This document shows positions 5,396 to 54,636 of a stretch of 64,000 nt of DNA, piece after piece. The notes under the pieces were generated by a model. That model worked only from the letters and a program-made list of their open reading frames with translations, was not told the DNA's origin and did no database searches. Made by a program: the position numbers and the translations under genes. Numbering within the stretch: the stretch's first letter is position 1; each line of letters starts with the position of its first letter. This DNA is from Candidatus Aenigmatarchaeota archaeon (lineage in GTDB: Archaea > Aenigmatarchaeota > Aenigmatarchaeia > QMZS01), in assembly GCA_016932615.1 (NCBI GenBank), contig JAFGCN010000007.1, forward strand, positions 19,189 through 83,188, read 5' to 3'.

Positions 5396-5611
5396 ATGGC
5401 AGCGGACAAAAAGAAGGAAAGGTGGGTTTATGTCTGCCCAAAATGCGGCAGCAAAGATATTGCCATAAGGTCATGGGACATTGCATTTAACGAAAAAATC
5501 TGCAGCCGCTGCGGCTACACTTCCCAGTTCTTCCCGCAGGTTCCCCTGAAAGCAAGGAAAAAGCAAGCGGGCGAAATCAAGAAGCGGCCCTCTCCAAAAG
5601 GCAAGTTATAG
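5396..5611 (+). CDS. small zinc-ribbon protein
   Basis: CPKCGS...CSRCGY two CxxC pairs, basic C-terminus. Confidence 0.4.
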   Translation: MAADKKKERWVYVCPKCGSKDIAIRSWDIAFNEKICSRCGYTSQFFPQVPLKARKKQAGEIKKRPSPKGKL

Positions 5612-14118: not shown

Positions 14119-14195
14119 AATAGAACACCTGAACTAATATTTCCGATTGAAAGCGCAGGATATCCTGTTTCTATCTATTAAATAGGCTTTAAATT

Positions 14196-14513
14196 ATGGC
14201 AAAGGCGGCAATAAAAGAATCGGCAGAAGTCAGGAAAATGAAGTCCGTGATAGCAAGTTACAGAGAGATAATGAGGCGAAAGTACAAGGTAAAGGAAATT
14301 GGGCTTTTCGGCTCTTATGCCCGAGGGGAACAGAAAAAGACAAGCGACATAGACCTTCTTGTCAGGTTCAGGGAAAACGCGACACTCTTTGATTTTGTAA
14401 GCCTCGGCGACTTTCTTGAAGAAAAGCTGAAGAAAAAAGTGGACTTGGTCTCTGTTGGAGGCGTGAGAAAGGAGCTTGAGAAAAACATCCAAGAAGAGCT
14501 TATCCGCCTATGA
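14196..14513 (+). CDS. mntA: minimal nucleotidyltransferase (MNT) antitoxin
   Basis: LFGSYARGEQKKTSDIDLLV nucleotidyltransferase motif (GS...DxD). Confidence 0.8.
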   Translation: MAKAAIKESAEVRKMKSVIASYREIMRRKYKVKEIGLFGSYARGEQKKTSDIDLLVRFRENATLFDFVSLGDFLEEKLKKKVDLVSVGGVRKELEKNIQEELIRL

Positions 14514-14857
14514 AACGTAACCCTGGATTGTTCTTGAATGATATCGTTTCCGCAATAGAGAGCATTGAAGAGTTTATCGGGGAGTTAACTCTTGAGGAGC
14601 TTATGAAAGATGATAAAACTTCAAGCGCAGTCATAAGAAAATTTGAGATAATCGGGGAAGCTTCAAAGCACGTTCCTGAAAGCATAAAATCTAGGCACAA
14701 AGAAATTCCATGGAAAGCTATGTCCGGCATGAGAGACCGGCTAATACACGCATATTTTGGGATTGATTATAATCTTGTATGGAAAGCGGTAAAGATCGAG
14801 ATACCCAAGCTAAATCCTAAACTTAAAAAGGCTCTGGCAAAGATGGAAAAAGAGTGA
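14510..14857 (+). CDS. hepT: HEPN-domain (DUF86/HepT) toxin
   Basis: 115 aa; R-x4-HAY HEPN motif (RDRLIHAYFGIDY); 4-nt overlap with MNT gene. Confidence 0.8.
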   Translation: MKRNPGLFLNDIVSAIESIEEFIGELTLEELMKDDKTSSAVIRKFEIIGEASKHVPESIKSRHKEIPWKAMSGMRDRLIHAYFGIDYNLVWKAVKIEIPKLNPKLKKALAKMEKE

Positions 14858-17557: not shown

Positions 17558-19261
17558 TCAGAAATACCTTGGCTTCCTTTTGTGGTACTTGGTATGAAGA
17601 AGCTTTTCGGCTTTTTTGCTTAGCGGCTTTCCCAGGAAGTCCTTGTAAAGCGTCTGGATGTCCGGGTTGTGGCTTGAAATTCTTATGGAAAGCCCCTTAT
17701 CTTCCTTGTAAAGCGCCTCCATTCTCTTGAGCCGAATCTCATTTGTAGTGGGCCTCGGCTGACCACCGCCCCCGATGCATCCGCCAGGGCACGCCATGAC
17801 CTCGATAAAGTGATATTTCTTCCACTGCCCGCCGTCGAAAAACTTCCTGATGTTTCCTAAGGTGTGGACAATAGCAACCTTTATGCGCTCTCCGGCAATA
17901 GAAATTTCCGCTTCCCTGATTCCATCGAGCCCGCGAACAGAAGTAAAGTCCAGCTTATTCAGGGATTTTCCGGTAAGCTCCTCATAGGCAACCCTTAGCG
18001 CCGCCTCCATCACGCCGCCAGTGACTCCAAAAAGGGCGGCCCCTCCGCTTGAAGAGCCAAGCGGCGTGTCGTAATCCCCGTCAGGCAACTTTGAAAATTC
18101 TATTCCCTTGGACTTAATGACCCGACCAAGTTCCCGGGTAGTCAGAACAAGGTCAACATCCGGCGAGCCGGTTGTCCTCATTTCGGGCCTTGCCGCTTCA
18201 AGCTTCTTTGCAACGCACGGCATTATCGACGCCACGAAGATACCTTTAGCATCTTTTCCAAGAAGCTTTGCGTAGTAATTTTTGGCTACTGCCCCGAACA
18301 TCTGCTGTGGCGACTTGCATGATGAGATATGCTTAAACAGATGCGGGTAATTCTGCTCGGCAAAAACAATCCAGGAAGGGCAGCAGGAAGTAATAAGCGG
18401 CAGGTTTTTCTTCTTTTTGTACCTCTCCAGAAATTCATTTGCTTCCTCCATTATAGTAAGGTCTGCCGCAAAGTTCGTGTCAAACACCTTGTCAAAGCCA
18501 ATTTTTTTAAGGGCGGAGACCATCTTTCCCTTTACCAAAGTGCCTGGAGCCATGCCAAACATCTCGCCTAGCGACGCCCTGACCGCAGGCGCGGTCTGCA
18601 CTACATAAAACTTTTTCTTGTGCGAGATATCCAGTGCCATCTCATCTATCGTTCTTACAAGCTTTTCGCTCAGCGCCCTTTCCCGGAGAGCGGTTGTCGG
18701 GCAGTAGAGCGCGCATTGGCCGCAGAAAGTGCATGGCGATTCGAGCATCGGCGTATTGTAAGGGGTGGTTATGGATGAGCAGACGCTCCGGTTCACAACA
18801 TCAATGTTCTCTATTCCCTGAATCCTGGAGCAGACCTGGGCGCACCTTCCGCAAAGGACGCAAAGCCGGCCTTCCCGCTCCAGAGGAACCGCCCTCTTGC
18901 AGGAAGAAATGCTTGAAGAGCCAAACATTGTCTTTTCTATTCCAAGCTCCCGAAAGACCTTGGTAATCTCCACGTCATTGTCGCTATGCGCATTTCCGTG
19001 CAAAAGCTCCGCATTCAGCTTTCTTGCATCAGTCACCCGCTTCGTATGGGTCAGAACTTCCATCCCTTCCCTTACCGGAGTATTGCAAGACGTTACAAGC
19101 TTTCCGTCTGCTTCAACGATGCATATCCTGCACCGCCCTTCCGGCTTGAGGTCGGGATGGTAGCAAAGTGTAGGTATGCTTATGCCGATTCTTTTGGCAA
19201 CCTCGAGAATTGTCTCTCCATCTTTTGCAAACACCCTTTTTCCATCGATTTTTACCTGCAT
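17558..19261 (-). CDS. hydA: [FeFe]-hydrogenase catalytic subunit HydA
   Basis: N-terminal 2Fe-2S ferredoxin fold, two 4Fe-4S motifs (CVLCGRCAQVC, CTFCGQCALYCP), H-cluster motifs L1 TSCCPSW, L2 MPCVAKKLE, L3 EVMACPGGCIGGGGQP. Confidence 0.8.
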   Translation of the reverse strand: MQVKIDGKRVFAKDGETILEVAKRIGISIPTLCYHPDLKPEGRCRICIVEADGKLVTSCNTPVREGMEVLTHTKRVTDARKLNAELLHGNAHSDNDVEITKVFRELGIEKTMFGSSSISSCKRAVPLEREGRLCVLCGRCAQVCSRIQGIENIDVVNRSVCSSITTPYNTPMLESPCTFCGQCALYCPTTALRERALSEKLVRTIDEMALDISHKKKFYVVQTAPAVRASLGEMFGMAPGTLVKGKMVSALKKIGFDKVFDTNFAADLTIMEEANEFLERYKKKKNLPLITSCCPSWIVFAEQNYPHLFKHISSCKSPQQMFGAVAKNYYAKLLGKDAKGIFVASIMPCVAKKLEAARPEMRTTGSPDVDLVLTTRELGRVIKSKGIEFSKLPDGDYDTPLGSSSGGAALFGVTGGVMEAALRVAYEELTGKSLNKLDFTSVRGLDGIREAEISIAGERIKVAIVHTLGNIRKFFDGGQWKKYHFIEVMACPGGCIGGGGQPRPTTNEIRLKRMEALYKEDKGLSIRISSHNPDIQTLYKDFLGKPLSKKAEKLLHTKYHKRKPRYF

Positions 19262-20370
19262 ACTTCAAGGAATTCTTTTTTGAAATACCTGAGCGCGCAC
19301 TCAAGGTGGGTTGTCGAAAACCGCCCAAGCGTGCAGTAAGACGTGTCACGGATATCTGGCACAAGCGCCTGTATTATTTTAAGGTCAGACCTGCACGACT
19401 TCTTGTCGCGCATTTTCCTGAGCGCTTCAAGAACGCGGAAATTTCCCTCCCTGCACGGAGTGCAATAGCCGCAGGACTCATGGACAAAAAACTCGGCAAA
19501 TATCTTGGACACTTCCGGTATGCTCCGATTCTGACCCACCACGATAAGGGCTCTTGAGCCCATCATAGCGCCGGTTCCGGAAAAGCTTTTTTCATCAAAA
19601 GGCATCTTCCTGAAATTTTTGTATGGAAGGCACCCAGCCGACGCCCCAAAATAAACTGCCTTTGGCTCCTCTTTTGGCTTTCCCATTGCGATAATCTCAC
19701 CAAGGGGAGTTCCAAGCTTGGCCTCATAAACTCCCGGGGCCTGAAGGTCTCCTGAAAGGCACACAACGGTAAGCTCTGGGTTCCACGTTCCGTCAAGTAT
19801 CAGGGGAATAGTTGCCAGGGTTTCGACATTGTTGACGCAGGTAGGCCGACCATTCAGACCTGCCTGAACAGGATAAGGGGGCTTCCTTCTTACGATGGGG
19901 CGGTTTCCCTCCATGGATTCGAGAATTGCCGACTCCTCGCCGCAGAGGTACGCCCCGGCTCCAAGCACAACCGTAATCCTAAGCCCAATCTTCTTCAGCC
20001 GTGAAGAGGATTTTTTTATCTCGGCTTCAAGCTTTGGCCGAATGTAGGAATATTCCCCCCGGAGGTAAATCCACGCCCGCCGGATTCCCATTGCGTAGGC
20101 GGCAATCGCCATTCCCTCAATAAGAAGTGAAGGATTATTTTCCATTATGAACCTGTCCTTAAACGTTCCCGGCTCGCCCTCATCCGCATTGCATACAAGG
20201 TAGCGCTCGCCTTTTCCCATCGACTCCCACTTCTGTCCCGTAGGATAATTCGAGCCGCTTCTGCCGCGAAGCCCTGACTCCTTTACCAGCCCTATAACCT
20301 TTTTCGGGCTTCTCTTGAGCGCTTTTTCATAGCCCCTCCAGCAAGTGTTAGTTAGCAGTTGCATATTCAA
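19252..20370 (-). CDS. hydB: NuoF-like NADH-binding flavoprotein subunit (HydB)
   Basis: GSNYPTG...CNADEGEPGTFKDR FMN/NADH motifs; ESCGYCTPCREG 4Fe-4S motif. Confidence 0.75.
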   Translation of the reverse strand: MNMQLLTNTCWRGYEKALKRSPKKVIGLVKESGLRGRSGSNYPTGQKWESMGKGERYLVCNADEGEPGTFKDRFIMENNPSLLIEGMAIAAYAMGIRRAWIYLRGEYSYIRPKLEAEIKKSSSRLKKIGLRITVVLGAGAYLCGEESAILESMEGNRPIVRRKPPYPVQAGLNGRPTCVNNVETLATIPLILDGTWNPELTVVCLSGDLQAPGVYEAKLGTPLGEIIAMGKPKEEPKAVYFGASAGCLPYKNFRKMPFDEKSFSGTGAMMGSRALIVVGQNRSIPEVSKIFAEFFVHESCGYCTPCREGNFRVLEALRKMRDKKSCRSDLKIIQALVPDIRDTSYCTLGRFSTTHLECALRYFKKEFLEVCR

Positions 20371-20813
20371 TCAAGCCCGGCAAGAATCTGCCGTATTTTT
20401 TCCTCAGTAAGGTTCGTGTAAACCTTGCCGTCAACCATCATTGAGGGGGCCTTGTCGCACTGCCCAAGGCATGACGCCTTCTCAAGCGTGAATTTTCCGT
20501 CGGTTGTCGTATCTCCAAGCTTCACCCCCAGCTCTTTTTTAAGAAAGTCAAGAAGCGTGAAGGACTTATTCAGGTAGCAGGAAGGGCTCCCACAAACGCG
20601 TATAATATGCTGTCCGCACTTTTTTGTCGGAAGAAAAGCATAAAAGCTGGCAACCCCATAAAGCTTTGCTAAAGGCATTCCAAGGCCACGGCTTACCTTG
20701 TCAAGCTTTTCAAAAGAAACATATCCCTCCTGCCGGACAATCTCCTCAAGAACGGTTAAAAGCTCGATTTCGCCATTCCTGCAGGATTTGATGAGCAAAT
20801 CCAGTTTCCCCAT
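20367..20813 (-). CDS. hydC: NuoE-like thioredoxin-fold [2Fe-2S] subunit (HydC)
   Basis: CGSPSCY ... CLGQCDKAPSMMVDGKVY motif of NuoE/HndA. Confidence 0.75.
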   Translation of the reverse strand: MGKLDLLIKSCRNGEIELLTVLEEIVRQEGYVSFEKLDKVSRGLGMPLAKLYGVASFYAFLPTKKCGQHIIRVCGSPSCYLNKSFTLLDFLKKELGVKLGDTTTDGKFTLEKASCLGQCDKAPSMMVDGKVYTNLTEEKIRQILAGLD

Positions 20814-20877: not shown

Positions 20878-21710
20878 GTGGTCTATATTATGCTTCCTAT
20901 AACGCTTAGGCCCTGCCCCAAAAAGCATAGCTATGATCTGGACAAAGCAGAATTGCCTGAAGTTACTCTCAAAAGAGTCACTCATGCGCTGGAAACCCTG
21001 GACTCAGAAGTCAGCCTGGAAAATCTTGAAAGCAAGGAAAAACTTTGGGTGTACCGGGCAGTCTCAAAAAAATTTCTAGATATCGACCCGCCATACATCC
21101 GCTGCGGGAGGTCACACGGAAAAGGGGTGACGCAGGTACAAGCAAAATGCAGTGCCCCGATGTAGCAGGTCGAAAGAATAAATGCAAAAAACGTCATGCA
21201 GAACCTTGTAAGAGACCCGGAAACCTTGTTTGAGGCGTATGAAGGGCTCCCTAAAGAGTCGTCTATTCCAATCAGCCAACTGCTTTCCTATGGCTACCAC
21301 CCTTCATTTTACGCTCCCAATGCAGGGCAAGTCTTTAGGAAAAAGAAAATGATGTTCATGAAGGTCCACTGCCTGACAGACAAAACTGAAAAATACCTGC
21401 CGCTTTTCTGGCATCTCTATTTTTACGGAACAAATGGGTTTGCTTCCGGGAACACTTACGAAGAAGCGGTTCTTCGGGCGCTTTGCGAAGTTATCTAAAG
21501 ACATAATAAGATAGAAACCAGAAACAGGTACTTGGAAAGAAAGGAGATTTGGCTTGATTCCCACCAGGAGATTATCTCAGGTCTTCTCAGCAACCTGAAC
21601 GCCTGGGGGTTCAAGCCCATCCTTGAAGAGTGGAGCCGCCCGATACCAGTCCCCACTATCCAATGCAGACTCGGGTACAAGGCCGGATATGGCACATACC
21701 CCAAACCAAA
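20878..21710 (+). pseudogene. degraded YcaO-domain paralog (stop and frameshifts, C-terminus missing)
   Basis: Three ORF fragments (20878-21165, 21196-21498, 21532-~21710) align in order to the intact paralogs at 21966 and 25736. Fragment 1 stops at KCSAPM*, where the paralogs read KCSALMEWVER. Confidence 0.55.
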
Positions 21711-21715
21711 CTCCA

Positions 21716-21886
21716 TCAGATCTTCAAATTTATCTCCTTTAGCTTCTCACGCACAATCGGCGCGCACTCCTGGCATACCCAGCACTCATCCTTTCCAATC
21801 GAGGTCTTCTTTATTATCTGGAGCCGGCCGTTCTTTGTGGGCTTGAACCTTTGCCCGCAAAGTTCGCATTTATGAAGCTTTAGCAT
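21716..21886 (-). CDS. small zinc-ribbon protein (56 aa)
   Basis: MLKLHKCELCGQRF...ECWVCQEC; ATG 21884-21886, TGA 21716-21718; divergent from YcaO gene at 21966; below ORF-track size cut-off. Confidence 0.35.
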   Translation of the reverse strand: MLKLHKCELCGQRFKPTKNGRLQIIKKTSIGKDECWVCQECAPIVREKLKEINLKI

Positions 21887-21965
21887 AATAGATTAAAGAG
21901 TTAACCTATAAAGTACCGGACATTTCCGGTTTGCCTAGTGACCTCCACTACACTAACTGCTTAGC

Positions 21966-23168
21966 TTGCATATATATTTTATGCAACAAATAATGCTGGA
22001 AGCTTGTCCCAAAAAATACACCTATGATCAAGACAAGGCAGAATTGCCCGAAAAAACATTGGAAAATGTACTAGGCATACTAAAAGACAGACATATAGAA
22101 GTAGAATTCAGGGAAGTCCAAAGCCTACTGGGAATCCCGTTTTACAAGTTGATGTCCACCGACCCCGAACGAAATTACTCCTCATATCTATTTTCAGGCA
22201 GCTCTTCTGGAAAAGGATCAACGCGCTTCCAGTCAAAATGCAGCGCCCTTATGGAGTGGGTCGAGCGAGTAAACGCAGGGCAAATCCCAACTAGACTACT
22301 CAACAGCGAAGAGATGGTCCATTGCAGCTATAATGAACTCTGTACAAACTCCAGAATCGCCCCGAAAGAAATGCTGTCCTACAGCTTCCACCCCTCATTT
22401 AAAAGCAATGCCTCAGAAGAGATACTGAGACATAAAAAAATGCACTACCTGAAGTTCCAGTGCCTTTCCGGACAAGAGGGGGCATACCTTCCAATATTCT
22501 GGCACCTGTATTTCAACTGCTCAAACGGACTTGCTGCAGGGAATACTTATGAGGAAGCAATCCTTCAAGCATTGTGTGAAGTCGTAGAGCGTAATAATGT
22601 CATTGAAACAAGGCTGAGAAATCTAAAATATCGAAGAGAAATAGTGCTAGATACCGATTATAAGCCCTTGAGAGATATGTCTGAGGTGCTTCACAAACAA
22701 GGAATAACCCCCATTATAGAGGACTGGAGTTGTCCGATACCAATACCTACAATGCACTGCCGATTTGGACCCAGAGCGGGCTATGGAACCAGCACTAGCC
22801 CCATAAAGTCTGCCATAAGAGCGATAACTGAAATGGTTCAGGACTATGCGATAAACGAAAAACACTGCCTTCCGCCGCAGGAAAATATAATCTATCCTCC
22901 GGCGGATAAAAAGATAGAGCTAAGCAAAATAAAAAGTCTGGAAAGGCAGGATATCCTTTCAGAGATAAAGGAAATCGTCAGCACCCTTAATTCCATGGGG
23001 TACCAGACCTATGTCAGGGACATCTCCCTACAGATACCTGTGCCTACGGTTCTGGTGGTTGTTCCTGGGCTTAAATGCTATGATTTCAGAAATCAAGAGA
23101 GGCATCTTCTGGATTTTAAGAGCAACCTTGTCCAGTATTATAACGATTACCTCATATACCTGCGCTAA
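21966..23168 (+). CDS. YcaO-domain protein
   Basis: 400 aa; SGKGSTRFQSKCSALMEWVER matches the YcaO ATP-binding signature (GKG..T...A..SAL.E..ER). Confidence 0.7.
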   Translation: MHIYFMQQIMLEACPKKYTYDQDKAELPEKTLENVLGILKDRHIEVEFREVQSLLGIPFYKLMSTDPERNYSSYLFSGSSSGKGSTRFQSKCSALMEWVERVNAGQIPTRLLNSEEMVHCSYNELCTNSRIAPKEMLSYSFHPSFKSNASEEILRHKKMHYLKFQCLSGQEGAYLPIFWHLYFNCSNGLAAGNTYEEAILQALCEVVERNNVIETRLRNLKYRREIVLDTDYKPLRDMSEVLHKQGITPIIEDWSCPIPIPTMHCRFGPRAGYGTSTSPIKSAIRAITEMVQDYAINEKHCLPPQENIIYPPADKKIELSKIKSLERQDILSEIKEIVSTLNSMGYQTYVRDISLQIPVPTVLVVVPGLKCYDFRNQERHLLDFKSNLVQYYNDYLIYLR

Positions 23169-23281
23169 CCTCAAAAATGGCCGGGTTCAAGGAGGGGACT
23201 ATTTGAATCTCCAGCATTCCGTTGCCCACCTGCACCAATTAAGCTTGCCTCTAAAACCTTCGTACAGAAAACAGAAGATCA

Positions 23282-23602
23282 TCAAGGAACAAGCCCCGGA
23301 AACTTCTGGCGGCAGTACTGCTTGCACTCGTCAGAATTAAGGGCCATGTTCTTCATGGACAGCCGGCATGCATGAAGAAGAGTGTCTGATGCGCCATCAT
23401 CATCTATGTCGCCAAGCATTAAAGCACTGGGGTCCATACCAGTTTCGGCAAATTTCCTGCAGCCGTCGTTTAAGGCGGACTCAACCGATAAACCTGACAT
23501 CTGTCCCATCGACCCGCTAAGGTAAAGCACGCTTAAGACAAGAACAATTGCTCCAAGAGCAACAATAATTATGCTGTTTACGGTAAGCTCGATGCCCTTC
23601 AT
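23282..23602 (-). CDS. small class III signal peptide (pilin-like) protein
   Basis: MKGIELTVNSIIIVALGAIVLVLSV N-terminus. Confidence 0.4.
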   Translation of the reverse strand: MKGIELTVNSIIIVALGAIVLVLSVLYLSGSMGQMSGLSVESALNDGCRKFAETGMDPSALMLGDIDDDGASDTLLHACRLSMKNMALNSDECKQYCRQKFPGLVP

Positions 23603-23632
23603 AAATATACTGTATTTCTATAGCTATTATTT

Positions 23633-23953
23633 ATGAGGCAAGGCAACCTGACCATAGAACACGTGATTCTATTGTTAATAGCACTCCTTGTTCTCGTAGT
23701 GTCCTACCTTTTCGTAAATGGCTCCATAAAAGGCCCTACAAACAGCACAACCGAGCTGACGCAAACCTACAGCGAGTGTAACAAGTGGAGGATGTTTGGC
23801 TACCTGGGAACAGATTTCTCAACACACGTTGACGGAAAGCCAAAATACCCTGCGCTGTGGCAGACCTACGTAGGTGCAATCACAAATACACCGACCCCAG
23901 AACAAATAGAGCAGGCAAAAAAATACTGCACCCTGTCGCAAAATAGCCCTTAA
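23633..23953 (+). CDS. small membrane-anchored protein, pilin-like N-terminus
   Basis: MRQGNLTIEHVILLLIALLVLVVSY N-terminus. Confidence 0.35.
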   Translation: MRQGNLTIEHVILLLIALLVLVVSYLFVNGSIKGPTNSTTELTQTYSECNKWRMFGYLGTDFSTHVDGKPKYPALWQTYVGAITNTPTPEQIEQAKKYCTLSQNSP

Positions 23954-24006
23954 AAAGCAGGCCAAAACCTCAAAATCAGAAATGAATTATTATTCCAGAT
24001 TCATTT

Positions 24007-25503
24007 ATGTTCATCGAGCATCCTCTGATTAAAAAGGGGGCTTTGCAGATAAGAGACTATCAGGTCGAGATTGCAAAAAGCGCGATAAGTAAAAATACTC
24101 TTGTTGTGATACCTACCGGAATGGGAAAGACGAACATTGCGCTTCTCGTAGTCGCCGAGCGGCTCAATAAGGTGGATGGAAAGGTCCTTTTTCTTGCCCC
24201 CACAAAGCCGCTTGTCGAGCAACACAAGAAGACCTTTGAAAAGCTGTCTGAACTTGCAGACCTGGAAGTCATAACCGGGACAATAAGGCCGGACCTTCGC
24301 GGGAAGCACTACCAGCGCTCAAGAATTATATTTGCAACGCCCCAGACTATTGAAAATGACCTGAAGAGCGGAATTCTAAATTTCGAGGATTTTGTCCTGC
24401 TGATTGTTGATGAAGCGCACCGCTCTGTCGGAAACTATGCTTACACATACATTGCAGAAAACTATATGGGGCGGGCGAAAAATCCACTTCTTATCGCGCT
24501 TACCGCCTCTCCTGGAGGGAGGGTTGCACGGGTCGAGGAAATAAAGAAAAACCTGTTCATAGAATCAGTTGAATTTCGCTCTGAAAAAGATTCTGATGTT
24601 TCCCAGTATGTAAAAGACCGGGAAATGAATACTGTTCAGGTCGAGCTTCCAGCAGAATACCTTGAGGCAAAGAAACTTCTCCAGGAGATAATTTCGTCAA
24701 AGTCCGATACTCTTTGTTCAATGGGCGCGGTTCCTACAAAAAAGTTCTCCAAGAAGATGCTTTTGGAGTTCCAGAATTTCTACGCAAAGAAGGCAAGCCA
24801 GACGAAAAATCCCCGTCTCTTCCAAGCGATGTCAAAAATAGCCGAGCTGATAAAGCTGGACTACTGTCTTGAATTGCTTGAAACTCAAGGGGCGGCGCCT
24901 CTCAGGGAATACCTCAAAAAGCTGAAAACCGAAAGCACCAAGGCCTCAGCCAGCATGCTTAATAACCCCAAGTTTATGGGATTTTTAAAGCGTGCGGAAA
25001 ACCTGCCCGACCACCCCAAAATGAATGAGCTTGAAAAAATCGTCAAAAGCGAAATCGAAAAAAAGGTCATTGTGTTCACTCAGTACCGGGCCACAGCTAG
25101 CGACATACTATTTAACCTGAAGCGCATTGAGGGTGTGAAGCCCGCACTCCTGATAGGGCAGAAATCCGGCCTGACTCAAAAAGAGCAGGTAAGCGTCATC
25201 AGGGACTTTGAGGATGGGTTCTTTAATGTATTGATTTGCACATCCATTGGCGAGGAAGGGCTCGACATAAAAGGCGTTGGAACGGCCGTCTTTTACGAGC
25301 CGGTCCCTTCAGAAATAAGGAGCATCCAGAGAAGGGGGAGGGTTGCGCGGCTTGTCGAGGGAAAGCTGTATGTTCTGGTTGCAAAAGACACCCGGGATGA
25401 AGCATACTACTGGACGGCTTACCACAAGGAAAAGAAGATGAGCCGGTCGCTTGGTGGCGAAAAAGAGCAGGCAAAGCTGGGAGACTTTGAAAGCCAGGGG
25501 TAG
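24007..25503 (+). CDS. Hef/ERCC4-type superfamily 2 helicase (helicase domain only)
   Basis: VVIPTGMGKT Walker A, LIVDEAHRSVGNYAY (DEAH), QRRGRVAR motif VI; inserted helical region between RecA-like lobes typical of Hef/FANCM family. Confidence 0.6.
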   Translation: MFIEHPLIKKGALQIRDYQVEIAKSAISKNTLVVIPTGMGKTNIALLVVAERLNKVDGKVLFLAPTKPLVEQHKKTFEKLSELADLEVITGTIRPDLRGKHYQRSRIIFATPQTIENDLKSGILNFEDFVLLIVDEAHRSVGNYAYTYIAENYMGRAKNPLLIALTASPGGRVARVEEIKKNLFIESVEFRSEKDSDVSQYVKDREMNTVQVELPAEYLEAKKLLQEIISSKSDTLCSMGAVPTKKFSKKMLLEFQNFYAKKASQTKNPRLFQAMSKIAELIKLDYCLELLETQGAAPLREYLKKLKTESTKASASMLNNPKFMGFLKRAENLPDHPKMNELEKIVKSEIEKKVIVFTQYRATASDILFNLKRIEGVKPALLIGQKSGLTQKEQVSVIRDFEDGFFNVLICTSIGEEGLDIKGVGTAVFYEPVPSEIRSIQRRGRVARLVEGKLYVLVAKDTRDEAYYWTAYHKEKKMSRSLGGEKEQAKLGDFESQG

Positions 25504-25548
25504 GGCAAGCAAAAAAAGACACACAAAAAAGCAATTTGGCTAAGTGGC

Positions 25549-25695
25549 TTATTCATCAGTTTTCTTTGGCTTCCTTACCGCAACTGGCCCAATATAGCCG
25601 CAATCGAGGCAGTCGTACTGGTTGTCCTGGCCTCCCAGGTAAGGGCTAAGCTCTGTAGAGCCGCACTTCGGGCACTTGAGAGGCGATTTGTTCAT
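25549..25695 (-). CDS. small zinc-ribbon protein (48 aa)
   Basis: MNKSPLKCPKCGS...YDCLDCGY; divergent from YcaO gene at 25736; below ORF-track size cut-off. Confidence 0.35.
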   Translation of the reverse strand: MNKSPLKCPKCGSTELSPYLGGQDNQYDCLDCGYIGPVAVRKPKKTDE

Positions 25696-25735
25696 AATAT
25701 TCCAAAACTTATAAGAGTTCAAAACTATTGGATTT

Positions 25736-26932
25736 ATGAAGCCAATCGTCCTGAAAAAATGCCTAAAGAAATATACCTACGACACCGACAAGGCAGAAAC
25801 GCCCAAAGACACTATCGGAAGAGTGACTCGGGTCCTAAAGGGGCAAGGACTAAATATCGTCTTCGAAAAGCTGGAAAACAGGGCAAATATTCCCGTCTAC
25901 CGCGTAGTTTCTGCCGATCCTTCCAAGGATTATTCTTCCCTAGTCTTTAGCGGAAAGGCGCACGGAAAAGGTGCGACTGAAAGCCAGGCGAAGTGCAGCG
26001 CTCTTATGGAGTGGGTGGAACGAGTAAATGCTGGAAACGCAATACGCCTGCTTGCAAAAGACAAGGAAACAATCTTCAGGGCTCATGAAACTATCCCTTC
26101 AGAATCCACTATAGATATCAAATATATGCTGTCTTACAGCCATAACCCTAGCTTTTATGGGAAAAGTGCAGAAAGGATTATCAAACGCAAAAAAATGCAT
26201 TTTATGAAAGCTTACTGCCTTACCGATAAACGGGAGAGATATCTACCATTTTTATGGCACCTGTACTTCAATGGGTCAAATGGGCTTGCCTCAGGAAACA
26301 CTTACGAGGAAGCTGTTCTTCAGGCGCTTTGTGAAGTTATCGAAAGACACAATATTGTGGAGATAAAGACATTAAATTCAAAAGTAAACGCTATCGAGCT
26401 AGGCTTTCCCTGCAAGCCCCTCGCAGAAATGCTTTCAAAAATCCAGGAAGTTACTGCAAGACCAATCATACAAAAGTGGAGCCGCCCGATACCAGTCCCC
26501 ACTGTCGCCTGCAGGCTACACGATAGCACTGGATACGGAACTGCTCCAAGCCCAGCAAAAGCAGCCATGAGAGCCATAACAGAAGCCATACAAGAAGATA
26601 CCGCTACGAGACGGTATGGACAAGATAGTGCCACAATCAAGATTGAGTCACAAGAGCCAATACCTCTCAGCAGTATGGAAAGCCTGGAGAGGGAAGATCT
26701 GTATGATGAGATTAATGAAATCTCAAGGATTCTTGAGTCCATGGGGCATATGATATATGTTATGGATTTCTCCTCAATCGTCCCCATACCCACTGTCGAG
26801 GTGATTGTGCCTGGACTCAGGTCTGTCGACTACACTGGAAGAGATCGCCACCTACGGGAATTTCAGTCTTGCCTTATTGAGTATTTTAACCTCGTAGCAA
26901 GCTTACCTCAGTGGAATATTTTAACCGCTTAG
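25736..26932 (+). CDS. YcaO-domain protein
   Basis: 398 aa; SGKAHGKGATESQAKCSALMEWVERVNAG signature; paralog of 21966-23168 (shared CxKKYTYDxDKAExP N-terminus). Confidence 0.7.
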   Translation: MKPIVLKKCLKKYTYDTDKAETPKDTIGRVTRVLKGQGLNIVFEKLENRANIPVYRVVSADPSKDYSSLVFSGKAHGKGATESQAKCSALMEWVERVNAGNAIRLLAKDKETIFRAHETIPSESTIDIKYMLSYSHNPSFYGKSAERIIKRKKMHFMKAYCLTDKRERYLPFLWHLYFNGSNGLASGNTYEEAVLQALCEVIERHNIVEIKTLNSKVNAIELGFPCKPLAEMLSKIQEVTARPIIQKWSRPIPVPTVACRLHDSTGYGTAPSPAKAAMRAITEAIQEDTATRRYGQDSATIKIESQEPIPLSSMESLEREDLYDEINEISRILESMGHMIYVMDFSSIVPIPTVEVIVPGLRSVDYTGRDRHLREFQSCLIEYFNLVASLPQWNILTA

Positions 26933-26992: not shown

Positions 26993-27183
26993 CGCTGGGG
27001 GCAAGATTTGAAATCGCGGAAAACCTCATAGCCAATTTAGCAGTAATATTCCTGCTTTGCAGGAATCTGCTTCTTTTGACGTTGAGGCATTATTCTTCCT
27101 CGGGAAGAATAAAGCTTCACTCGCGCCTCCTTGCGGAGACCAGCTTTCCAGGCTGGCGCCTTAGACCACTCGGCCACCCCAGC
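26993..27183 (-). tRNA. tRNA-Ser(GGA) with a ~107-nt intron between T-stem and T-loop (53/54)
   Basis: Minus-strand exon 1 (27183-27120): GCTGGGG-TG-GCC-GAGTGGTCTAA-GGC-G-CCAGC-CTGGAAA-GCTGG-long variable arm-GCGAG. Exon 2 (27012-26993): TTCAAAT-CTTGC-CCCCAGC-G. Acceptor arms pair perfectly; the T-stem GCGAG/CTTGC pairs with one G-U. Confidence 0.65.
27089..27112 (-). repeat. intron hairpin (TTTATTCTTCC-CGAG-GAAGAATAA) 6 nt after 5' splice site
   Basis: inverted repeat in tRNA-Ser intron, same pyrimidine-arm/purine-arm design as the other four intron hairpins. Confidence 0.55.
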
Positions 27184-27317: not shown

Positions 27318-27962
27318 CTAATCTTGGCCGTGCTTTTGACGCTCTTTTTTCTCAAGCTCCTCGCGGATTGATTCATACTGCCCAAAATTCTTGTGAACTG
27401 TTTTTTGTAGTGGCTCTGGTTTTGGCTCTATATCGGCCTTTATCGGATTTTTTTCATAATGCCTGTATTCAAGCCGTGGGACTTTATGCTTTTTGCCTTT
27501 TACTTCCTTTTTGATTTTTGCCAATTCATTTAGGATTATCAAAAGCCCCGGAATGAATATGAAAAGCGCAAAGCCCATTGGAGTCCTTACGAAATTTCCA
27601 AGATGACCCAGGTAAGGAATACAAAATATTACTATTCCTTCAACACTGCCGGGCCGTGTTACTTCCATGTCAGGGTCCTCATTTGCATCACCCTTCGTCA
27701 AAAAGCCATCCGGCGTAACGTTTATAATCCTGTGGGTAGTGTAGGTTCCGGCGCTTCCAAAAGTAATAATGTCGCCGATTTTGAGGTCTGACGCATTTAC
27801 CCTCGCTATGGCAACAACATCCCCTACGTTAATGGCTGGAGACATCGAGCCGGAAACAACAGTCCTGAACTGAATGCCCTGGGATTGCAGGCCAAATGCA
27901 ATGAATGCTGCAAGAGCAAGAACAGCTACTGCTGCGCCAAATTTAAGTATATTGCTTGCCAT
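27318..27962 (-). CDS. signal peptidase I (archaeal/ER-type S26B; SipW-like)
   Basis: N-terminal TM, VVSGSMSP (SGSMxP catalytic Ser box), TKGDAN(E)D box; placed directly upstream of four SipW-cognate substrates. Confidence 0.8.
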   Translation of the reverse strand: MASNILKFGAAVAVLALAAFIAFGLQSQGIQFRTVVSGSMSPAINVGDVVAIARVNASDLKIGDIITFGSAGTYTTHRIINVTPDGFLTKGDANEDPDMEVTRPGSVEGIVIFCIPYLGHLGNFVRTPMGFALFIFIPGLLIILNELAKIKKEVKGKKHKVPRLEYRHYEKNPIKADIEPKPEPLQKTVHKNFGQYESIREELEKKERQKHGQD

Positions 27963-28011
27963 AATATAATATACCTCAAGTTACCCTTTCCTTTATCAGG
28001 CCTATTCAAAA

Positions 28012-29205
28012 CTACTTCTCATTTAGCGAGCTGCACTTAAAGTTAAAGTTATTGAGTCTCTGCTCAGCATAAAAAGACAAGTCTGCAATGAGCGAATCCG
28101 TCTGGGCGACATTGTTCTGGTGAGACGTTCCGTCGCACTCAGCGCTGTAGCCGCTGACGGTTATATGCCCAAAGCACCAGAGAAGGCCTACCCTCTTTGG
28201 AACATTGCTTCTAAGAACCATGTTGTTTGTCGGGTCCGCTATTGGAAAGGAGGTAACCTTGTTGCTTATTGGCCCAATGAAAAGCTTTGTGTCGCCCAGG
28301 CCGTATTTTCCATCCTTAACTGTGTCAATCCACCCAAAAAGCTCTATGAAACCGGAAAGCTCGCCCTGGTCTTCGCCCGAAGTCGTGTCGCCTGCCTCTT
28401 CTTCGGGGTCAATGAGGCCGTTTTCAAGGTCCTGTTTGTTCCTGACAACAAGGCAAGCCCATGCCTCCTGGCCACTGACTGAAATCGAAAAAAGCCCCTC
28501 ACCAGTGTCTCCCGGCTTAACGTCTTCCACTATGAAGGTCGGCTTTCCTTCGATGTCGATGCCGTACCCCCCGCATGACTCCTCAGTCAGATTAATCCGG
28601 TACAAAAGCCCTGCCGTATTCCTGGTCGGGTCGGGAAACCCAGCCCGGTTTTTAACCTTTATCTCAATTGTATTTTCTCCTGCTTTCATCCTTCCAAGAA
28701 GGTTGTAAGTGCGAACCGACCCGTAATTTGTGTTTAAAACGCTTGCGCCTACCAAAAGCCCATTGACCCTAAGCTCATAAGTGTTGTCCGCGGCGAGTTC
28801 AATCATCGCGTATTTCGGCGGAACCGTAAGAGTAACCTTTCTTACAAAAGTATAAGTCTCGTCCCGGCTGGGATTTTCAACATAATAGCTTTTCCATATC
28901 CATTTCGCTCCGGGGATGCTGGTCCAGGCGGGATTTCCGGAGTATGCCTCAACTGCGTTTTCTCCGGTTTCCTTTACGGTGTCCTCCTCACTGCTTGTGA
29001 TAATCTGGTAGCAGGCCTCCGGGTTGGGCGAAGGAAGCAGATTCACGTTAAGAGTAAATGGCTGGGATGAAAATCCACTCCCAGACATTATCGAGTCAAC
29101 TGAAAAAGCGCCGGTAACATTCTCCATGCTCCCAAAAGCCAGGGCAAGAATTCCCACTGCAAGAATGCCTGCAAAAACGACGAGATACTGGGAAGAGAGT
29201 CTCAT
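28012..29205 (-). CDS. secreted protein with SipW-cognate (TasA/camelysin-type) signal peptide
   Basis: N-terminus ...ILALAFGSMENVTGAFSVDSIMSGSG carries the TGAFxxD core of the SipW-cognate signal. Confidence 0.55.
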   Translation of the reverse strand: MRLSSQYLVVFAGILAVGILALAFGSMENVTGAFSVDSIMSGSGFSSQPFTLNVNLLPSPNPEACYQIITSSEEDTVKETGENAVEAYSGNPAWTSIPGAKWIWKSYYVENPSRDETYTFVRKVTLTVPPKYAMIELAADNTYELRVNGLLVGASVLNTNYGSVRTYNLLGRMKAGENTIEIKVKNRAGFPDPTRNTAGLLYRINLTEESCGGYGIDIEGKPTFIVEDVKPGDTGEGLFSISVSGQEAWACLVVRNKQDLENGLIDPEEEAGDTTSGEDQGELSGFIELFGWIDTVKDGKYGLGDTKLFIGPISNKVTSFPIADPTNNMVLRSNVPKRVGLLWCFGHITVSGYSAECDGTSHQNNVAQTDSLIADLSFYAEQRLNNFNFKCSSLNEK

Positions 29206-29323
29206 AAACTATCTTGAAAAACCGCCAATATATACTTTACCTCTCGTAAGTGTCCTGTAATGCTTCTGCACGCCGTCCGTTGTTTCATTCATGCAGAAAA
29301 AACAAATGGCAGAGCCGACTTGA

Positions 29324-30280
29324 TTAAGGCGATTGGCAATGCGCAATGCCCCAAAGAATTGCTTCAAGCCCGCTGTAATCCGACGCACTGAAGAAATAGG
29401 TCGTGTCGGTGGGTATGTTTGTCCTGTACCAGTCTATCCACCCGGCATTTGTCCCGACGAATACGACATATATCTTTATTCCTGCGGCCTTTGCGGCATC
29501 GGCCTGGGCTATTGCGGCGGCCTCACCCGTTCCAGGGTTGCCTGGCTTGTTGGGCATCTTGTCGGCGATAAGTATCATGTAATCCGGCGACCCGGCATCA
29601 TTTCGGTCGTTAGGTCCTGTAAGCTCAGTTGTCGCGTTCAGAAGGCCTCCGTAAAGGTTTGTGTTGCTGCCTGTGTCAAGCAGCTCTATTGCCGCGTCGA
29701 TTGCCGCCCTGTCGCCGGTTAAAATCTGGTCCAGGGTTCCCTCATCAGCATAACTTGCCTGGCCTATGTGCGGCCCATCCAGCTCTGGAGTCAGGTTATC
29801 AACAAAGGAATGAGCTGCTGCCTTTAAGGTGTCCATATCGCCGGACGTGCCTCCAGACCTTTGAAACACAAGCATCACGTCAGGCCTTGCCGAGCACATG
29901 CTTGGAAGAGTGCAGTCCGACAGGCAATTCACGCCATTATTGACGCCGTCATCGCACTCCTCAGGCCCGTTTACTGTTCCGTCGCCGCAGTATTCATCGG
30001 TTATGCATTCATCCCAAAGGCAGCTTTCTGTGCAACCCCTCATTCCGGAGTATCCTAACAGAGTTGTGCAAGAGCCCAGGTTTCCGTCGCACTCTTCGCC
30101 TTCTTCGACCTCCCCGTTTCCGCAAGAAGAAGGAAAAACTGCCGCCACCGAAAATGAATTCCCCGCAGAGCTTTCCGTGTCAGTTATAAAAGCGCCTGTC
30201 GGCTTTTCGGCCGTGCCTGAAAGGATAAGTAAAGCTAGACCAACAAACATTACACCGGCTAAAACTCTTGAACTCACCAT
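29324..30280 (-). CDS. SipW-cognate secreted protein with Myxococcus-type Cys-rich repeats and vWA domain
   Basis: PTGAFITDTESSAGNSFSVA signal; CGNGEVEEGEECD and CGDGTVNGPEECDDG repeats; vWA-like LVFQRSGGTSGD ... LIADKMPN ... IYVVFVG. Confidence 0.6.
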   Translation of the reverse strand: MVSSRVLAGVMFVGLALLILSGTAEKPTGAFITDTESSAGNSFSVAAVFPSSCGNGEVEEGEECDGNLGSCTTLLGYSGMRGCTESCLWDECITDEYCGDGTVNGPEECDDGVNNGVNCLSDCTLPSMCSARPDVMLVFQRSGGTSGDMDTLKAAAHSFVDNLTPELDGPHIGQASYADEGTLDQILTGDRAAIDAAIELLDTGSNTNLYGGLLNATTELTGPNDRNDAGSPDYMILIADKMPNKPGNPGTGEAAAIAQADAAKAAGIKIYVVFVGTNAGWIDWYRTNIPTDTTYFFSASDYSGLEAILWGIAHCQSP

Positions 30281-30409
30281 GCTTAAATATATTTAGCCGG
30301 GGATGCTATATATGCAAAGTGGTTTGTAGTGCTATTGTAATGGTTTTTGCAGACGTTCCTGCCACAGGGGGAAAACAAAAAAGCTGAAAAGTGAAAAGAA
30401 AATGTTGGA

Positions 30410-31189
30410 CTAATCTACTGGGTTGCAAAGGAATTTGCCGTTGTTTCTTGCCTGGACTACCTCAAAGGAGATGTCTGCTGTGTAGCTGTCTGTCTGGACG
30501 CTGTTGTCTATAGGCAGGCCATTGCAGTATCCATCACCTTCGATGGTTCCAAGGCACCATGCTGCGCCTATAAAGTATGTCTTGGTTGGGTCCAATGGCT
30601 CGCCATCAATTCCGCCCACGTTGTTCTCTGCTGCGTCTGCAAGAGTCCACTTGACTGTTGAAATTGCGTCTGCCGTGCCTGCTGTCAAAAGCTCATCGCA
30701 CTCCACCTGATAGATGTTGTCTCCAGGGACTGCATCGTCTTCATCATCGCAAATGTCTGCCCAAATCATGAAGTTGAGGTTTGCTCCAAGCTCTCCATCT
30801 GTATCAGACTCGCAAGTTGGCTCATCATCGATTTCTGGCTCGTTGCATCCGTTTTCATCATCGCTTGTCTTTGTAAGAACCACGCATCCCCATGCAGGGT
30901 TTGTGTCAACGTGGATGCTTATCGTGTTCTCACCATAGTCGCCGGGCTTAAGGTCTGCGTAGTTGAAAAACTTCTGTGCCTCAAGGTCAGTGAGTTCCCA
31001 GCTGCATTCCTCCTTAGGATCTCCATTGTAAGTACAGGTGCTGTCAATCAACAGGTCAATTTCTCCGGCAGTAAATGTGTTGCCCTGTGATGTCTCAGTG
31101 TCAGAGAAGAATGCTCCTGTCATGCTTCCGCCAATAGCTGCTGCTGTTAGTCCGATAACTAGTAAACTGACTAGTATTTTTGTATTCAT
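30410..31189 (-). CDS. SipW-cognate (TasA/camelysin-like) secreted protein
   Basis: MNTKILVSLLVIGLTAAAIGGSMTGAFFSDTETSQGNTFTAGEIDL matches SipW-cognate signal consensus (GAFFSD.E.S..N.F.AG.LDL). Confidence 0.65.
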   Translation of the reverse strand: MNTKILVSLLVIGLTAAAIGGSMTGAFFSDTETSQGNTFTAGEIDLLIDSTCTYNGDPKEECSWELTDLEAQKFFNYADLKPGDYGENTISIHVDTNPAWGCVVLTKTSDDENGCNEPEIDDEPTCESDTDGELGANLNFMIWADICDDEDDAVPGDNIYQVECDELLTAGTADAISTVKWTLADAAENNVGGIDGEPLDPTKTYFIGAAWCLGTIEGDGYCNGLPIDNSVQTDSYTADISFEVVQARNNGKFLCNPVD

Positions 31190-31375
31190 ATAAATAGATT
31201 GTCCTCTACAATATTTAAGGAAAAAATAATTCCATTACGCTCGTAATTGTTGGATACTTCTTGGAAGTCTTATCTGGCAGTAATTTCAAAAAATCGGGCT
31301 TAATGAATTTTATCCGGGAGTAATCAAACTGAACAGAATGAGTAAGAAAAATTAAGAGAAAAAATAAAACAAAAC

Positions 31376-32815
31376 TTAGTCGCCGTTGCTGCAGTTTGCA
31401 AGATCTTCAAGTATCTCCAGCAAGTCGTTGAAATTCCCTGCGTCAAAGTAGTATGTAGAGTCGGTTGCAATATTTGCCTTGAGCCAGTCGGCATTGTCGG
31501 TGCTAACTCCAACCCCTACGACATATATCTTTGTGCCTCTGCTATCAGCAACATCTGCCTGCGCCTTTGCCATGTTTCTTGGCGTGTCTGGGCTTGTTGG
31601 AAGGTTTGGCTCTCCATCAGTTATTATGACCATGTAGTCCGGGGAGTCTGCGTCATCCCTGTCGTAAGAGGCATCTTCAAGCTCTTGGTTTGCAAGCAAG
31701 ATTCCCTCATAAAGGTTTGTGCTTCCGCCAGGAGATACTGCATCTATTGCCGCGTCGATTGCTGTTTTGTCGCTGGTTAAGTGCAGATCAAGTGTTCCGC
31801 TTGTTGAGAAACTTGTCTGGCCCATATGCGCTCCGTCTGTTTTTGGGTCAAGGGCTGTGACAAATGCGTGGGCTGCGTTCTTCATGGTGTTCATCTCAGT
31901 TGTGTCAATGCTTGCTGATCTGTCGAGAACGGTCATCACGTCAGGCGCTGCCGCGCAGATTCCCGGAAGGGTGCAGTCATTTCGGCATTCGTCATCATTT
32001 ACGTCATTTCCGTCGTCGCATTCCTCGCCCTGTTCAAGAATTCCATTTCCGCACACCGGCTCAGTGCCTGGCACGCAAAGGAAGTTCTCATTATGCCTCT
32101 GCTGGATTGCTTCAAAGGATATGTCTGCCATTACGCTGTCTGTCTGGATGATGTTTCCTGTTTCACTGGGAACGCTCCATGCAACCGCTATGCAGTAGTT
32201 GACTCCGGGTTGGACTGGTTCTCCCGTCAGGGCATCGGCAATTGGCCAGACAAGGTCTGTTGCCTTTGCTCCCTGGACAAGGTACTCATCTATTTCTACA
32301 TCGAAGTCGTTTTCGCAGTCATAATCCCTCCAGATGTCAAAAGACAAAACATCCTGCAGTTCGCCTTCGCCTAATCCTTGGTCGCCGCAGGTGCCATCTG
32401 CCTCATCTTCCGGCTCTGTGCAGCCGTTTTCAGCGTTTGAGAGGCCGGATATTTTTGCGCAAACCCAGGCCGGGTTTGAGGTAACGTGGATGCTTATTGT
32501 GCTCTCGCCATAGTCGCCGGGCTTGACATCACCAAAATTTAGGATTGGCTGTCCGTTCAGGTCCTGGGCAAGCCATGTGCATTCGCATTCTGTTCCAGGA
32601 ACAGGGTAATCATTTCCTCCCTGCCAGGTTCCGTCAACGCACTCGTTTCCATTGTAGTGGCATTCGCTGTCTACAGTAAGGTCAATTTCTCCGGCAGTAA
32701 ATGTGTTGCCAGTTGATGTTTCCGTGTCTGAGAAGAATGCTCCAGTCATTGTGCCGCCAATAGCTATCGCTGTCAGTCCGATAACTAGTAAACTGACTAG
32801 TATTTTTGTATTCAT
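31376..32815 (-). CDS. SipW-cognate secreted protein with Myxococcus-type Cys-rich repeat and C-terminal vWA domain
   Basis: N-terminus nearly identical to 30410-31189 product; CGNGILEQGEECDDGNDVNDDEC repeat; vWA MIDAS VLDRSASI ... ITDGEPN ... IYVVGVG. Confidence 0.65.
   Translation of the reverse strand: MNTKILVSLLVIGLTAIAIGGTMTGAFFSDTETSTGNTFTAGEIDLTVDSECHYNGNECVDGTWQGGNDYPVPGTECECTWLAQDLNGQPILNFGDVKPGDYGESTISIHVTSNPAWVCAKISGLSNAENGCTEPEDEADGTCGDQGLGEGELQDVLSFDIWRDYDCENDFDVEIDEYLVQGAKATDLVWPIADALTGEPVQPGVNYCIAVAWSVPSETGNIIQTDSVMADISFEAIQQRHNENFLCVPGTEPVCGNGILEQGEECDDGNDVNDDECRNDCTLPGICAAAPDVMTVLDRSASIDTTEMNTMKNAAHAFVTALDPKTDGAHMGQTSFSTSGTLDLHLTSDKTAIDAAIDAVSPGGSTNLYEGILLANQELEDASYDRDDADSPDYMVIITDGEPNLPTSPDTPRNMAKAQADVADSRGTKIYVVGVGVSTDNADWLKANIATDSTYYFDAGNFNDLLEILEDLANCSNGD

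Positions 32816-53180: not shown

Positions 53181-54636
<1,456 letters not shown>

Follow-up and report, generated by a model that had tools for sequence, protein, structure and literature searches.

YcaO proteins share a general mechanism, the ATP-dependent O-phosphorylation of a backbone amide of the substrate. What, then, might be the role of YcaO paralogs that stand alone in the genome of an archaeon that is not a methanogen? This question is raised by a 64-kb stretch of contig JAFGCN010000007.1 (hereafter, the window), which belongs to the metagenome-assembled genome (MAG) of Candidatus Aenigmatarchaeota archaeon, a DPANN archaeon. As an initial annotation made from the sequence had recognized, the window encodes two intact YcaO proteins of ~400 aa (here YcaO-2 and YcaO-3) and one degraded copy (copy 1), with a Hef-type helicase gene between the intact copies and a tiny Cys4 zinc-ribbon (ZR) gene divergently upstream of each of them (ZR1 and ZR2; Table 1). 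Here, we favour, tentatively and with slightly less than even confidence, the reading that YcaO-2 and YcaO-3 are active, partner-independent activators of backbone amides, whose substrate would be encoded at an unlinked site and whose favoured chemistry would be thioamidation.

The assignment of both intact proteins to the YcaO family is robust. The Pfam model PF02624 matches YcaO-2 with an E value of 1.8e-46 and YcaO-3 with 1.1e-49 (159 and 170 bits; cutoff 25.7), and also recognizes the middle piece of copy 1, while TIGR00702 passes its cutoff of 75.65 bits with YcaO-3 (96 bits) and falls slightly short of it with YcaO-2 (70.7 bits). The copies have in common the YcaO signature GKG[SA]T..Q[SA]KCSALMEWVER, reported already in the initial annotation, and the motif C[PL]KKYTYD.DKAE.P. 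The latter had been described as a conserved N-terminus, and while the motif is indeed shared, it does not mark an extra domain: the CxKKYxYDxDKA region aligns with the start of TIGR00702, of the M. jannaschii YcaO (MjYcaO) and of LynD, and is thus the ordinary N-terminal part of the YcaO domain bearing a clade-specific motif.

Alignments of 8 and 35 sequences show invariance, or close to it, at E92, E95, R96, E200, E203, R204, R279 and E283 (numbered as in YcaO-3); all of these except R96, together with the GKG motif, are invariant across the 35 diverse homologs and kept in both intact copies. The ATP/Mg residues (S..E..ER, E..ER and R...E) align to the matching motifs of MjYcaO and LynD, and both YcaO-2 and YcaO-3 keep all 54 residues that are invariant in their clade. 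Judged by their sequences, the two proteins are therefore intact and retain every residue that defines the ATP/Mg site of YcaO enzymes. An AlphaFold2 model of YcaO-3 (predicted local distance difference test 87, predicted template modelling score 0.90) retrieved 41 significant matches in a structure search of the PDB, all of them YcaO-domain entries, with the M. jannaschii YcaO at the top (6pe3/6peu, TM 0.68/0.73), closely followed by LynD, the E. coli YcaO (EcYcaO) and the M. kandleri YcaO (MkYcaO).

The absence of TfuA, an E1-like partner, a dehydrogenase and an obvious precursor from the window, likewise proposed initially, was borne out by profile searches. Pfam scans of ~45 proteins of the window, which covers 64 kb of a 163-kb contig, detected no TfuA (PF07812), ThiF/E1, nitroreductase, radical SAM (rSAM) or other enzyme for the maturation of peptides that are ribosomally synthesized and modified post-translationally (RiPPs). 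A six-frame tblastn search of the window with a TfuA query from a canonical YcaO-TfuA locus (L019) gave a best E value of 0.08, while its positive control worked, and neither a dehydrogenase nor an obvious precursor was found within the 64 kb. The intact YcaOs are single-domain proteins in which Pfam finds no E1 or RiPP recognition element (RRE) domain, and no member of their clade has P.P.P, the C-terminal PxPxP motif, in its last 25 residues. Both proteins conform, as far as their sequences and neighbourhoods tell, to the pattern of partner-independent single-domain YcaOs, namely one domain of ~380-400 aa with no partner gene nearby.

Among characterised enzymes, the closest to the window YcaOs is the TfuA-independent, thioamide-forming YcaO of M. 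jannaschii, with the cyanobactin heterocyclases nearly as close. The best-scoring NCBIfam model is TIGR03266 (McrA-Gly thioamidation, methanogenesis marker 1), with 96.5 and 106.5 bits, under its cutoff of 365; the SagD-type model TIGR03604 (azoline cyclodehydratase) follows with 53 and 67 bits (cutoff 219), and the E. coli-type model NF040716 (uL16 thioamidase) with 41-49 bits (cutoff 700). A profile of the clade gives 126 bits to MjYcaO, 110-113 to LynD, TruD and MusD, 66 to MkYcaO and 41 to EcYcaO. The best sequence match in the PDB is MJ1094, at 2e-11 when one sequence serves as the query and at 1.5e-35 when the clade profile does, while the profile matches LynD, TruD and MusD at 1e-31.

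In M. jannaschii and M. kandleri, thioglycine is made without TfuA (PMC5589413). Like the window YcaOs, MjYcaO (MJ1094, 6PE3/6PEU) and MkYcaO (6CI7/6CIB) are archaeal proteins with a single domain of ~380-400 aa, three ATP/Mg blocks and no TfuA. Their identity to the window YcaOs is, however, only ~21%, and the latter add the CxKKYxYDxDKA motif and occur as several paralogs at one locus. The hosts differ as well: ours is a DPANN archaeon in which we see no methyl-coenzyme M reductase (MCR), with no mcr gene in the window, so that the McrA substrate is presumably absent. The azoline-forming or peptidase proteins LynD, TruD and MusD, in turn, have a YcaO domain that aligns end to end with the clade profile and a similar fold (TMq ~0.67), but they carry a fused N-terminal E1-like/RRE region of ~320 aa and a C-terminal PxPxP, both of which the window YcaOs lack.

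According to the reading that we favour, a lineage-specific set of paralogous YcaOs occupies sites within and beside a conserved housekeeping block made up of ZR2, Hef, two pilin-like genes and ZR1. Each intact enzyme would bind ATP and O-phosphorylate a backbone amide in a substrate that is made on ribosomes and whose gene lies at another place in the genome; attack by free sulfide would then yield a backbone thioamide on that protein or peptide. The two paralogs, which are 46% identical and have isoelectric points (pI) of 6.8 and 8.6, probably act on different substrates or sites. We place thioamidation ahead of other chemistries because the nearest characterised enzymes are the TfuA-less YcaOs of methanogens, because the partner-less EcYcaO targets folded proteins and because the hallmarks of azoline formation, namely an E1/RRE partner, a dehydrogenase and PxPxP, are absent; the anaerobic host, with an [FeFe]-hydrogenase next door, points in the same direction. 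Amidine formation is also possible for stand-alone YcaOs (PMC8442711). A bolder version of this scenario, in which YcaO-2 and YcaO-3 would constitute the third case of protein thioamidation by YcaOs after McrA and uL16, each adapted to a cellular or surface protein of its own and drawing on environmental sulfide with no TfuA/ThiS relay, seems to us doubtful.

Several observations speak against partner-independent thioamidation. The clade profile scores the azoline-forming LynD, TruD and MusD nearly as high as MjYcaO, and the closest sister proteins (P0004, P0006 and P0007) are found in RiPP-like clusters rich in radical SAM genes, which hints at a role in RiPP maturation rather than in protein modification. 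No substrate was identified, and a gene for TfuA, ThiS, an rSAM enzyme or a precursor may reside elsewhere in the genome. The scores against TIGR03266 are far under its cutoff and, to our knowledge, DPANN archaea are not expected to carry MCR; the window YcaOs should therefore not be regarded as orthologs of the methanogen enzyme.

The window YcaOs are a lineage-specific set from a very rare clade. In an exhaustive profile search of 1.84 billion representatives clustered at 50% identity, the tight clade above 340 bits came to about six representatives and no more, the window genes themselves being two of these; below the tight clade, the scores fall to YcaOs of 480-590 aa with C-terminal extensions. 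At an identity of at least 50%, neither window YcaO has an ortholog among these 1.84e9 representatives, where both are singletons, unlike the neighbouring Hef and ZR1, which do have close orthologs. Two additional tight-clade representatives considered as orthologs, P0101 and P0102, were both placed in a sister clade, which leaves the window genes without sampled orthologs. A scan of a collection of GTDB representatives recovered only bacterial relatives with C-terminal tetratricopeptide repeats (YcaO-TPRs).

The sister clade (P0003-P0008 and P0101) is 30-35% identical to the window YcaOs, the closest members reaching 32-35%, and resembles them in length, in the N-terminal CxKKYxYDxDKA motif, in the invariant residues and in a neutral to basic pI. 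It differs in its surroundings, as its members are encoded in clusters with an HxsD-like gene, three to five radical-SAM/SPASM genes, two U32 peptidase genes and one A24 peptidase gene, and show neither paralog triplication nor zinc-ribbon neighbours. These clusters (L002, 2844-17106; L006, 99-9521; L021-L023) reside on contigs of ~32% GC and include an HxsD-domain protein, small HxsD-like proteins and an A24 peptidase of the prepilin type. They apparently represent an undescribed RiPP-like type; our literature search found no paper naming YcaO together with HxsD.

The sister clade gives weight to the possibility that YcaO-2 and YcaO-3 are RiPP maturases split from their cluster, which would act on a small precursor peptide to form an azoline, amidine or thioamide, with the precursor and the rSAM or other tailoring enzymes all encoded elsewhere. 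The closest relatives sit in rSAM/SPASM, HxsD-like, U32 and A24 clusters while sharing the CxKKYxYDxDKA motif, the pI of the window proteins is neutral to basic as in that clade, and it is the near-equal similarity of the clade profile to the heterocyclases LynD, TruD and MusD that keeps this explanation in contention. However, RiPP genes are usually clustered, and queries for the rSAM, HxsD-like, U32 and A24 proteins of the sister clusters found no match in the window. Moreover, neither gene leaves room for a precursor open reading frame (ORF) beside it, as the downstream spacers measure 113 and 60 nt and those separating the two genes from ZR1 and ZR2 upstream 40-94 nt, and the PxPxP terminus and the E1/RRE domain are missing. 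A detached RiPP maturase is the main rival of the reading that we favour, but on balance we consider it unlikely, if somewhat less so than the bolder protein-thioamidation scenario above.

EcYcaO offers another point of comparison, being likewise devoid of a partner and of TfuA while thioamidating the protein uL16, and the authors of that work predict that more protein substrates exist (PMC13063428). Its pI is 4.4, and an acidic surface was stated to be a hallmark of the uL16-modifying enzymes (PMC13063428). EcYcaO (uL16 Met82; 4Q84-4Q86) and the YcaO-TPRs have in common with the window YcaOs that they lack a partner and TfuA and are encoded outside RiPP clusters, and the motif KKYTYDQDKA is found both in those of Desulfobulbales and in the window clade. 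They are nevertheless proteins of ~590 aa with a C-terminal TPR-type extension and a pI of 4.4-5.6, as opposed to ~400 aa and a pI of 6.8-8.6 in the window. That YcaO-2 and YcaO-3 are functional equivalents of EcYcaO, thioamidating uL16 or assisting RimO, might be suggested by this common independence and by the automatic names that the Joint Genome Institute pipeline gives to some homologs ('S12 methylthiotransferase accessory factor'). Yet NF040716 scores fall more than an order of magnitude short of its cutoff, EcYcaO is the weakest sequence match among the YcaOs of the PDB, the C-terminal TPR-like domain is absent and neither pI approaches 4.4, so that we regard such equivalence as the least probable of all the explanations considered.

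The YcaO-TPR proteins recovered in our searches measure ~590 aa, have a pI of 4.8-5.6, carry the KKYTYDQDKA motif and come from Desulfobulbales and cable bacteria (L007-L015) and from an Elusimicrobia MAG; examples are those of Desulfogranum marinum (L008, 9995-11749) and Candidatus Electrothrix (L011 and L012). Heptosyltransferase and GmhB-like genes come after several of their genes, and no TfuA gene adjoins any of those from Desulfobulbales and cable bacteria. Given their EcYcaO-like acidity, the proteins of Desulfobulbales and cable bacteria may be protein-modifying enzymes.

Whether the window YcaOs are still functional in vivo is a separate matter, to which the degraded copy is relevant. 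Copy 1 consists of three ORF pieces (20878-21165, 21196-21498 and 21532-21846), all in one reading frame, the middle one of which matches PF02624 at 4.5e-13. Two stops in frame interrupt it, a TAG codon (21163-21165) and a TAA codon (21496-21498). Its homology to the other copies ends at ~21715, ~120 codons short, and a deletion that reaches as far as the ZR1 stop codon has removed the 3' third. Each stop arose from a single G-to-T change at a Glu codon, and the two codons lie in the two ExxER Mg/ATP motifs (CSALMEWVER became CSAPM(stop)QVER, with an L-to-P change beside the stop, and LCEVIERHN became LCEVI(stop)RHN). With ~95 codons of copy 1 one mutation away from a stop, both nonsense changes would hit motif Glu codons by chance with a probability of ~1e-3, a figure calculated post hoc. 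A frameshifted pseudogene was ruled out, as copy 1 stays in frame throughout and is damaged by two nonsense codons and a deletion at its 3' end, and so was stop-codon recoding, given two different stops and the loss of the 3' third. Over 15.3 kb, the Logan contig L001 shows no difference from the window (100% identity), but as it may derive from the same reads, it lends the stops no independent support.

Aligned with one another, as the initial annotation had suggested, the three copies are pairwise 44-49% identical at the amino-acid level, and their third-codon positions are only 37-42% identical, which is near saturation and indicates that the paralogy is old. Copy 1 nonetheless retains 43 of the 47 clade-invariant residues that it covers, pointing to a recent death. 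The sequences thus show that the duplications are old, whereas the loss of copy 1 is recent.

The fate of copy 1 invites the view that the whole set is decaying, left over from a pathway that has been lost, and that copies 2 and 3 no longer function in vivo. Genome reduction is typical of DPANN archaea, copy 1 is freshly dead, no partners or substrate are encoded nearby, and orthologs are missing from other sampled genomes, with related genomes lacking a YcaO at these positions. On the other hand, YcaO-2 and YcaO-3 remain intact ORFs of ~400 codons in spite of their old divergence (46% identity, saturated synonymous sites) and have kept all 54 invariant residues, which requires long-term purifying selection, and even copy 1 held 43 of 47 such residues until very recently. 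We therefore consider wholesale decay improbable. That a streamlined genome keeps two such diverged paralogs suggests that their function is under selection.

The most conspicuous feature of the locus was the head-to-head arrangement of ZR1 and ZR2, each with one of the intact YcaO genes, and the initial annotation had raised the possibility that these small proteins are regulators or substrates of the YcaOs, or else unrelated zinc ribbons. The CxxC...CxxC pattern is present in 4 of the 571 small ORFs of the window, one of which is Rpr2-like, and its rarity made the pairing with both intact YcaOs look non-random. Comparison with related genomes points to the unrelated alternative. Two related contigs, L016 and L017, carry the gene order ZR2-like, (one gene), Hef, pilin-like, pilin-like and ZR1 in the same orientations as in the window, with identities to the window of 74-79% for Hef (4636-6129 in L016, 1611-3125 in L017), 38-49% for the pilin-like proteins, 86-95% for ZR1 and 47-53% for the ZR2-like protein. 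Neither contig contains a YcaO gene (tblastn E>0.5), be it at any of the three window positions or elsewhere. In the window, YcaO-2 is located between the first pilin-like gene and ZR1, YcaO-3 just past ZR2, and copy 1 just past ZR1, the point where synteny ends in all three genomes. Synteny thus unites Hef, the two pilin-like genes and the two zinc-ribbon micro-proteins into one block in no fewer than three Aenigmarchaeota-like genomes.

Were YcaO and the divergent Cys4 zinc ribbon a functional module, with the latter as a substrate, a regulator or a sulfur- or metal-handling partner, the facing of intact YcaOs by two of the only three stand-alone small CxxC...CxxC genes in the 64 kb would be accounted for; a divergent Cys-rich DUF2769 gene at the canonical YcaO-TfuA locus L019 could be seen in the same light. 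This explanation is, however, largely refuted and in our judgement very improbable, though a little less so than equivalence to EcYcaO. In L016 and L017, where YcaO is lacking, ZR1 and the ZR2-like gene are placed with respect to Hef and the pilin-like genes just as in the window; ZR1 falls into a cluster of at least 90% identity with seven members, from other metagenomes, whereas the YcaOs are singletons; ZR1 and ZR2 have no significant similarity to each other; and at the 17 loci that encode YcaO relatives, no small zinc-ribbon ORF comes closer than 600 nt to the YcaO gene. The arrangement initially proposed for comparison, YcaO with a divergent zinc ribbon, is hence not conserved in relatives. 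On this evidence, ZR1 and ZR2 are resident genes of the Hef block and bystanders to the YcaOs, and their pairing a coincidence of synteny, since they mark the edges of a conserved block, where rearrangements and insertions accumulate. It does not merit treatment as a module.

The lack of similarity between ZR1 and ZR2 also speaks against a unit of zinc ribbon and YcaO duplicated together. ZR2 belongs to a multi-copy CPKCGS...CxxCGY family, a further paralog of which is encoded in the window at 5396-5611, and a search for its homologs gave only one match, P0100, 61% identical and located on a contig of 984 nt that offers no gene context. The DUF2769 protein of L019 (7537-7857, minus strand; 106 aa), divergent from ycaO, is the sole small Cys-rich neighbour among the 18 YcaO loci examined.

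Partner-independent YcaOs form an established kind, and the majority of stand-alone YcaOs have yet to be characterised, as has the clade described here in its non-methanogen context, in keeping with the initial annotation. What is new is a rare, previously undescribed YcaO clade member with diverged paralogs in a DPANN genome, and not a new system. If partner-independent amide activation is indeed what YcaO-2 and YcaO-3 perform, this chemistry would reach DPANN archaea and gain a new substrate class, which would back the recent proposal that further protein substrates of YcaOs await discovery (PMC13063428). The extreme rarity of the clade affords little comparative leverage.

Table 1. Features of the YcaO region, with positions given in window coordinates
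Feature	Position	Strand	Basis and remarks
YcaO copy 1, pseudogene	20878..21715	+	Pfam PF02624 on middle piece, frame analysis, alignment
ZR1, 56-aa zinc ribbon CxxC...CxxCxxC, MBN2094637.1	21716..21886	-	GenBank-annotated; synteny
YcaO-2, intact, single-domain, MBN2094638.1	21981..23168	+	395 aa from ATG 21981; pI 6.8
Type IV pilin-like small protein, class III signal-peptide-like N-terminus	23282..23602	-	46-49% identical orthologs in L016 and L017
Second pilin-like small protein	23633..23953	+	~38% identical orthologs in L016 and L017
Hef-type helicase, helicase half only	24007..25503	+	NCBIfam PRK13766, 593 bits, profile positions 4-508 of 781
ZR2, 48-aa zinc ribbon CPKCGS...CxxCGY, MBN2094642.1	25549..25695	-	GenBank-annotated; homologs near Hef in L016 and L017
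YcaO-3, intact, single-domain, MBN2094643.1	25736..26932	+	398 aa; pI 8.6

As for the finer layout of the region (Table 1), the ORF of YcaO-2 opens at a TTG codon at 21966 (400 aa), upstream of the ATG that NCBI takes as the start. The GenBank proteins MBN2094637-MBN2094643 of this region carry the locus tags JW727_01180-01210. The Hef homolog measures ~500 aa and is without the XPF nuclease domain, and the two pilin-like genes located alongside it between the intact YcaOs encode 106 aa each. The GC content is unremarkable. A mobile cassette was considered and rejected, as the YcaO genes are not flanked by terminal direct or inverted repeats and the long repeats reflect paralogy alone.

Upstream of copy 1, divergent from it and separated by a 64-nt spacer, is an operon for NuoE-like, NuoF-like and [FeFe]-hydrogenase large-subunit proteins of the HydABC type (17558-20813, minus strand). 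About 60 nt 3' of YcaO-3, Rfam gives a full-length tRNA match on the minus strand (26993-27183; 37.9 bits over 191 nt), while ARAGORN reports no tRNA in the window. The stretching of the match over 191 nt, together with the missing ARAGORN call, indicates a tRNA gene with an insert of ~115 nt, which is probably an intron; by eye, the gene looks like a class II tRNA-Ser(GGA). A full-length archaeal 16S rRNA gene (53182-54636, plus strand; 1327 bits) is present as well, with no 23S or 5S rRNA gene detected in the rest of the window, so that the rRNA genes appear to be unlinked.

Beyond the tRNA, a long array of secreted or surface proteins occupies 27318-32815 on the minus strand, with further large ORFs on the same strand up to ~52973. 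It includes a signal-peptidase-I-like protein (27318-27962, recognized by motif only), proteins with TasA/camelysin (Peptidase_M73)-like N-termini, von Willebrand factor A-domain proteins, an M64 peptidase, a C25-like peptidase and many ORFs without a Pfam match, and is reminiscent of TasA/SipW-type fibre loci. A NosD/beta-helix protein of 1036 aa is encoded on the plus strand at 40944-44054. On the other side of the hydrogenase operon, a fused Eco57I/MmeI-type restriction-modification enzyme (969 aa) is followed by a nucleotidyltransferase/HepT (MNT-HEPN) toxin-antitoxin pair, the two together spanning 11209-14857.

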